From NCBI RefSeq assembly GCF_003991155.1, contig NZ_CP031295.1: 64,000 nucleotides of DNA; one strand, 5' to 3'. Under the pieces are notes generated by a model that was not told the origin of the DNA, did no database searches, and saw nothing but the letters and a program-made list of their open reading frames with translations. Positions 57,263-57,324 of the stretch are shown one piece after another; positions within the stretch are counted from its first letter, which is position 1; each line of letters begins with the position of its first letter. The stretch is from Escherichia coli. GTDB lineage: Bacteria > Pseudomonadota > Gammaproteobacteria > Enterobacterales > Enterobacteriaceae. A program made the position numbers and the translations under genes.

Positions 57263-57324
57263 ACACGACATAATCTGTAGTCAGGGAGGATAGACTCTTT
57301 ACTGACTACAGATTATGTCGTGTT
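57263..57324. repeat. 22-bp perfect inverted repeat with RepFIB-iteron-like core
   Basis: ACACGACATAATCTGTAGTCAG ... CTGACTACAGATTATGTCGTGT; core CTGTAGTCAG also occurs in RepFIB iterons. Confidence 0.5.

Follow-up and report, generated by a model that had tools for sequence, protein, structure and literature searches.

A probable orphan RepFIB E/F iteron pair downstream of iutA in plasmid-borne aerobactin modules

Just downstream of iutA, the ferric aerobactin receptor gene (ORF at 54989..57190, plus strand), a stretch of Escherichia coli DNA of 64,000 nt (contig NZ_CP031295.1, hereafter called the window) carries a perfect inverted repeat, which raises the question of where such an element comes from and what it may do at this place. 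The original prediction, a perfect 22-bp inverted repeat between iutA and IS1, is borne out by a repeat search of the 64-kb window, with two arms of 22 nt each that are 100% complementary, namely a left arm at 57263..57284 on the plus strand (ACACGACATAATCTGTAGTCAG) and a right arm at 57302..57323 on the minus strand, which is its exact reverse complement; the spacer, given at first as 18 bp, and the end of the element, given as 57324, were each off by one, the spacer (57285..57301, plus strand, GGAGGATAGACTCTTTA) counting 17 nt and the element ending at 57323. The repeat begins 72 nt past the iutA stop codon (57188-57190), and the IS1 that bounds the sit-iuc module has its left end at 57620 (57620..58387, plus strand, the right end being deduced from the 768-bp length of IS1). 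By our own arithmetic, about 2e-7 perfect 22-nt inverted repeats with a spacer of 50 nt or less are expected by chance per 64 kb. The 22-mer of the arms has no further copy in the window with up to 3 mismatches allowed (shuffled sequences expect 0), the element bears no annotation in the records inspected and no earlier description of it was found in the literature searched. Insertion sequence or MITE ends were considered and rejected, given a single locus in the window, PLSDB copies that occur solely in the iutA context apart from the RepFIB E/F units, and no direct repeat (target-site duplication) around the element. Three roles had been put forward for this repeat, i.e. a remote binding site for the RepFIB initiator, a terminator or a recombination site, and the first of these, with a putative binding, appears to be the best supported.

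The link to RepFIB comes from the replicon resident in the window. Its initiator gene repA (38479..39498, minus strand) encodes Rep3_N and Rep3_C domains and is listed as an ORF from a GTG at 39456, the true start being a CTG located 14 codons upstream of this GTG (PMC11983097). The RepFIB iterons have the form A(T/C)ATAA(G/A)CTGTAGT(C/G)AG and are sited on both sides of repA, with four upstream (origin) iterons at 39612..39714 on the minus strand (39612, 39635, 39656 and 39698) and six downstream repeats. Among the latter, repeat E (38462-38478) stands directly at the repA stop codon in the same orientation as the origin repeats, repeat F (38428-38444) is inverted with respect to E, both forming with their 17-nt spacer the E/F inverted pair (38428..38478, minus strand), and the remaining control iterons G to J follow at 38213..38404 (plus strand; 38388, 38261, 38243 and 38213). 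By number and position, these six repeats would correspond to the published EFGHIJ block (PMC11983097), the individual letters being assigned by order. The window contains exactly 4 copies of the core CTGTAGTCAG, where 0.05 would be expected, namely in both arms of the iutA-side repeat, at 38435 (plus) and at 38462 (minus). Since the latter two copies sit within E and F, they constitute the E/F inverted pair, laid out like the iutA repeat. The core had been thought to be common to the RepFIB iterons at 38200-38478, about 18 kb away; it is exact at 38435 and 38462, but the other iterons carry the variants CTGTGGTCAG, CTGTAGTGAG and CTGCAGTGAG, and the distance holds, with 18.8 kb separating the iutA repeat and the resident E/F pair. 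A RepA-repressed promoter, 'EFp', presumably lies at E/F; a text search of the literature yielded no mention of it.

How far the resemblance extends beyond this core can be appreciated from the comparison of RepFIB replicons, as four RepFIB variants have the inverted pair with its 17-nt spacer, namely those of the window, of pSCU-124-1, of pAPEC-O2-ColV and of a Salmonella replicon whose Rep is 92% identical. Read in the sense of repA, the E/F unit of pSCU-124-1 is ACATAAACTGTAGTCAG-ATAAGAGAGACTCTTTA-CTGACTACAGTTTATAT, and the iutA repeat, read on the plus strand, is ACATAATCTGTAGTCAG-GGAGGATAGACTCTTTA-CTGACTACAGATTATGT, so aligned that 44 of 51 nt are identical. The spacers themselves agree at 13 positions out of 17, including an identical 10-nt block (AGACTCTTTA), vs. 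8 out of 17 in the opposite orientation. The same relationship was returned unprompted by blastn, with 87.8% identity over 49 nt and E = 4e-7 in 7.3 Gb of plasmid sequence. As for the RepFIB resident in the window, its spacer belongs to another class (TGAAGAGCGCTCCTTTA) and matches the iutA spacer at 10 positions out of 17; consequently, the iutA repeat is not a recent copy of the neighbouring replicon. In a scan of 100,044 species with one genome each, the arrangement CTGTAGTCAG-N17-CTGACTACAG was recovered in four RepFIB E/F units and in one unrelated GC-rich palindrome, from which the E/F architecture turns out to be essentially private to RepFIB and the iutA repeat. Searched in PLSDB, the exact arm sequence has no closer source replicon, the best matches outside the iutA context being RepFIB E/F units at 81.6-88.6%.

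Compared with the E/F units of P307, F and pO157-type FIB replicons, the iutA arm matches E at 16 and F at 15 of 17 positions, and the inverted pairing, the 17-nt length of the spacer and the hairpin potential are the same. The iutA repeat differs from these units in standing away from repA, without repeats G to J after it, in carrying a T at position 7, in having arms that are mutually identical and extended to 22 nt, and in being found on Klebsiella plasmids without that replicon as well; an E/F unit flanks repA within the replicon, and the iutA repeat lies 18.8 kb from the resident one. Taken as a whole, these comparisons indicate that the iutA repeat is very probably a homologue of the RepFIB E/F unit. 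On both sides, the homology stops within a few nucleotides of the iterons, which is not readily explained by a simple deletion. A degenerate repA beside the repeat was sought and rejected, the right flank consisting of an isolated Tn3-family fragment (57343..57433, plus strand), which shares about 86% identity with the DNA between tnpR and tnpA of a Tn3-family transposon on the Salmonella plasmid NZ_CP082930.1 (L005:3001-3090), and of an IS2-like (IS3-family) end fragment (57496..57577, plus strand), 80-90% identical to IS2 ends on many plasmids, with no further iterons. Likewise, a 101-aa ORF at 57299..57604 on the minus strand, which terminates within the repeat, gives no hit in Pfam and was rejected as a gene; it spans the unrelated Tn3-like and IS2-like fragments and is thus spurious.

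Each arm contains a complete RepFIB-type iteron in its inner 17 nt, i.e. ACATAATCTGTAGTCAG at 57268-57284 resembling repeat E in the left arm, and its counterpart at 57302-57318 in the orientation of repeat F in the right arm. The ten RepFIB iterons of the window itself served to build a weight matrix, the true iterons being scored leave-one-out; on this matrix, each arm reaches 22.7 bits, compared with 10.3-26.0 for the true iterons and 13.1 for the best other site outside the replicon in the 64 kb. The tie to the RepFIB iterons is thereby firmer than first claimed, each arm holding a full 17-nt iteron at 22.7 bits and the E/F geometry and part of the spacer being common as well. The matrix scan gave no further iteron-like site near the iutA repeat, and an iteron-like site at 25079 (12.7 bits, within a 299-aa ORF) was set aside as a chance match. 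Both arms agree with the iteron consensus except for a single deviation, the T at position 7, which may entail a reduced RepA affinity. T is absent from this position in a set of 32 distinct replicon iterons covering several RepFIB variants, where G (19) and A (13) share it, and such a substitution could be expected if the pair were a dead fossil, that is an element of the same stranded RepFIB E/F origin to which RepA no longer usefully binds and which, devoid of function, hitchhikes with iutA in a young flank. This possibility is regarded as doubtful; against it, the arms agree with the replicon's best iterons at 16 of the 17 positions, and the exception, position 7, is precisely the one that varies between G and A.

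The arms have diverged from the E/F pattern in another respect. Within RepFIB, position 2 is C in E and T in F, and the outer flanks of these two repeats are unrelated. Both arms of the iutA repeat have a C at position 2 and a T at position 7, and their symmetry runs 5 nt past the iteron (ACACG / CGTGT). On the left side, the outer ACAC (57263-57266) is part of a 10-nt sequence, TATAATAyAC (57257-57266), common to the chromosomal aerobactin flanks; on the right side, nothing in RepFIB corresponds to the outer 5 nt CGTGT, which are a mirror image of the left flank. The C and T common to both arms, together with a CGTGT mirroring a left flank that is not RepFIB, point to homogenisation of the arms, for which the simplest account would be that, once the aerobactin flank had been joined, one arm served as the template for the other inside the palindrome.

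Perfect arms could also be maintained by a role at the RNA level, where the 22-bp stem would stabilise the 3' end of the iutA transcript or end transcription of the aerobactin operon without need of a U-tract. The fold of 57185-57345 has an energy of -65.9 kcal/mol (z = -10.6), and its minimum-energy structure contains all 22 bp of the stem; at the DNA level, the hairpin of the iutA repeat is estimated at -24.5 kcal/mol vs. -17.0 for the resident E/F. Between iutA and the repeat stands a separate hairpin (57219..57256, plus strand; 15-nt arms, 8-nt loop), which is not part of the iteron pair and has no U-tract, making read-through into the repeat plausible. Besides, the RepFIB E/F hairpin (38435-38471, minus strand) is itself terminator-like for repA, with 15 pairs, a 7-nt loop and the tail CTTATATTAA, so that some incidental effect of the iutA repeat on read-through is possible; the resident spacer class gives this unit a 15-7-15 palindrome layout that starts right at the repA stop codon. 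Like Rho-independent terminators, the iutA repeat is a stable stem-loop shortly past a stop codon; unlike them, it has a stem of 41% G+C, a 17-nt loop, and no U-tract or T-run past the stem, the tail being TCCGTGCTCATTTCC, and a scan of 57000-57700 returned 0 terminator-like sites. No Rfam 15 family reaches its gathering threshold, the generic hairpin matches to miRNA models scoring 20-23 bits against thresholds of 74-171. Furthermore, the chromosomal aerobactin operons and pRHB40 manage without the repeat and keep the other hairpin, at 57219-57256, through three compensatory pair changes (GATATC/GATATC vs. GTAAAC/GTTTAC), the latter hairpin being probably the genuine conserved stem-loop at the 3' end of the iutA mRNA; in Cronobacter, a canonical terminator occupies this position. 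The terminator initially suggested is therefore not a canonical intrinsic one, considering the missing U-tract, the 17-nt loop, the negative scan and the hairpin that other lineages conserve instead, and a selected role of the stem in the iutA transcript is judged quite improbable.

Recombination would be another way to account for a palindrome at such a place, e.g. with the repeat as a second target of the tyrosine recombinase encoded beside the RepFIB iterons, or as a palindrome-driven breakpoint. The gene of this tyrosine recombinase (integrase) lies at 37454-38194, 234 nt from the RepFIB iteron block, the class-1 E/F unit is a 15-7-15 palindrome like the core site of a recombinase, and the repeat stands at a mosaic junction. 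The iutA copy, though, is without the extended inner palindrome, and composite queries, in which the 3' end of repA and the repeat were combined with one or the other flank on the iutA side, gave at best 46% coverage; the recombination site of the original prediction finds no support in the plasmid records, 0 of 4011 containing a hybrid junction between the RepFIB pair and the iutA repeat. The differing arrangements of RepFIB and iutA can moreover be accounted for by copies of IS1, and a recombination site is judged a highly improbable reading. Four IS1 copies are present in the window (3658, 35332-36099, 41370-42137 and 57620-58387), where two copies in the same orientation bracket RepFIB and two inverted copies bracket sit-iuc, corresponding to the classical ColV arrangement, and the overall order is int-RepFIB-IS1-sitABCD-iucABCD-iutA-repeat-IS1-sopAB. 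In pAPEC-O2-ColV, IS1 is inserted at a different point (equivalent to 57514) with RepFIB directly beyond it, and the repeat lies only about 2.6 kb from the origin iterons.

When did the repeat come to stand beside iutA? At the chromosomal aerobactin loci of VR50 and strain 08-00022 as well as in pRHB40, the iutA 3' end is 85-97% identical to the window and TATAATAyAC is kept, but homology to the window ends at about 57262-57266 and the repeat is absent. Over complete E. coli genomes, the iutA 3' end was found at 1051 chromosomal and 969 plasmid places, and the iutA-side repeat at 14 chromosomal and 891 plasmid places. Comparison with other aerobactin plasmids, which had been proposed as a check, finds the repeat on about 1,450 PLSDB plasmids and not on pRHB40; 832 of these records have the perfect allele and 604 a Klebsiella allele, all from Klebsiella among the matches listed, where the same flank is 98% identical and the right arm contains a 6-bp tandem AGATTA duplication. 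As seen in the Klebsiella plasmid p59001-phv (L001:4150-4185), this duplication bulges the stem and leaves the iteron core intact. Homology of the window flank with the Klebsiella iuc1 plasmids extends to 57577, the outer end of the IS2-like fragment. Being absent from the chromosomal loci compared and present on both E. coli and Klebsiella iuc1 plasmids, the repeat is a feature of one plasmid-borne lineage and not of the aerobactin operon proper; by the same distribution, its acquisition would predate the separation of the E. coli ColV-type and Klebsiella iuc1 versions. In a divergent iuc lineage represented by the Klebsiella plasmid NZ_CP072497.1, an IS2-like end (TGGATTTGCCCCTATAT) lies about 30 nt past the iutA stop (L013:2791-2840), and this flank contains neither the hairpin nor the repeat.

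The same distribution bears on whether the pair is alive or dead. No E. coli-type E/F unit was found in the Klebsiella iuc1 plasmids, which keep the repeat without an E. coli-type RepFIB, so that it cannot serve that replicon there; FIB(K) was considered as a cognate replicon in Klebsiella and discarded, its Rep being 58% identical and its iterons (ATATTGACTGTAGTATG) unlike the repeat. Retention without a cognate replicon, together with the 6-bp duplication, is what a non-functional remnant would predict, as is the equally good conservation of the neighbouring debris, i.e. the Tn3-family fragment and the IS2-like end. In addition, IS26 abuts the border between loop and right arm in pCUVET17-1136.1 (L021:2553-2617), where homology stops at 57302 and the palindrome is hence destroyed in that one plasmid. 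Both arms being intact in the 832 PLSDB records with the perfect allele speaks against such a remnant. Since the E. coli copies are about 100% identical over the whole flank, obvious junk included, conservation has no power here and is uninformative on selection, no sign of which is measurable on the repeat from E. coli sequence variation.

Between these readings, the balance leans to some extent towards an orphan RepFIB E/F pair with homogenised arms that would retain RepA binding and exert a weak control role. This explanation builds on what the analysis itself provides, namely the homology, the geometry, the iteron-quality score, the lineage distribution and the homogenisation of the arms. 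Accounting for them, a 51-nt piece of RepFIB, composed of an iteron, a 17-nt spacer and an inverted iteron, would have become fixed at the 3' edge of a plasmid-borne aerobactin module whose E. coli ColV-type and Klebsiella iuc1 versions had yet to diverge. The arms would then have been equalised, for which intramolecular repair templated inside the palindrome is the most likely route; the symmetry would have spread 5 nt into the flank, generating arms of 22 nt. On plasmids that carry RepFIB, RepA probably still binds both arms, to judge from their sequence, and the arms could act as two extra negative-control iterons through titration of RepA and/or handcuffing with the origin iterons. Taken as one block, the unit for which displacement data are published, the EFGHIJ repeats alone are sufficient to displace a FIB replicon; they have been modelled as sites of Rep-mediated handcuffing and control that target the origin repeats, either in cis or in trans (PMC11983097); a near-consensus pair elsewhere on the plasmid should thus bind RepA and add slightly to titration or handcuffing. 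Two iterons added to some 10-11 resident ones are expected to have only a small effect, which is predicted to bear on copy number and IncFIB incompatibility, and the very stable RNA hairpin in the iutA 3' region would be incidental.

Precedents for such orphan sites exist in other iteron plasmids. The iteron 10 of RK2 is a lone inverted iteron distant from the main cluster, and in R6K, the pi protein loops the DNA between the gamma iterons and the alpha and beta origins. The remote initiator sites of R6K convey the same idea as the iutA repeat, namely an isolated iteron or half-palindrome kilobases away from the main cluster and engaged by DNA looping, but they activate distant origins, and nothing suggests an origin beside iutA. 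The control iteron arrays, i.e. incC of F, incA of P1 and iteron 10 of RK2, are likewise initiator-binding repeats outside the origin, incC and iteron 10 being recognised as control iterons (PMC11983097), and they lower copy number by titration or handcuffing. These arrays stand within or beside their own replicon and their effect was demonstrated experimentally, whereas the iutA repeat stands in the flank of a virulence gene and is known from its sequence.

Aerobactin genes and FIB-family replicons also meet in Cronobacter. In pCsaC767b, the iuc-iutA cluster adjoins the parAB-repA of a FIB-family replicon with a Rep 67% identical, whose iterons are of a different type, A(T/A)(A/C)CCACTGTAG(C/T)GAG. 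Iterons of this own type are found outside the core at about 90 nt (L015:42689) and about 370 nt (L015:42970) past iutA, and a third orphan lies inside hipA, about 3 kb upstream of iucA (L015:31603), their scores of 19-28 bits comparing with 19-29 leave-one-out for the core iterons. The two orphans between iutA and parB stand among parS-like ATTTCAC boxes. Hence, Cronobacter pESA3-like plasmids resemble the E. coli situation in having iteron-quality sites of the resident FIB-family replicon shortly past iutA and away from the core, but these sites differ in belonging to another iteron class, in being single and not an E/F-type pair, and in showing no sequence homology with the E. coli flank; contiguous as they are with parAB-repA, they may simply belong to that replicon. 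This parallel suggests that aerobactin loci and FIB-family replicons have long been physically associated; it is not evidence of a function in E. coli. A bolder version of the preferred reading would see in the orphan pair a working remote control element, where RepA at the iutA side would loop to the RepFIB origin or to EFGHIJ, the aerobactin module would bring along an IncFIB determinant and thereby adjust the copy number of ColV-type plasmids, the module on Klebsiella hypervirulence plasmids could interfere with incoming E. coli RepFIB plasmids, and the Cronobacter orphan iterons would reflect a general, selected association; as a whole, this scenario is considered improbable.

Understood as a fossil, the repeat shows that the plasmid-borne aerobactin module, Klebsiella iuc1 included, once passed through an E. 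coli-type RepFIB plasmid, and it pinpoints the 3' boundary beyond which the plasmid and chromosomal versions of the aerobactin locus are no longer alike. Its carriers include the ColV-type plasmids of E. coli and Salmonella as well as the hypervirulence plasmids of Klebsiella. If RepA still binds, the virulence module would bear an extra determinant of incompatibility and copy control, which would be relevant to plasmid-curing designs relying on FIB iterons. Either way, this orphan pair is an incremental addition to iteron biology, without a new mechanism, and it is usable as an evolutionary marker.
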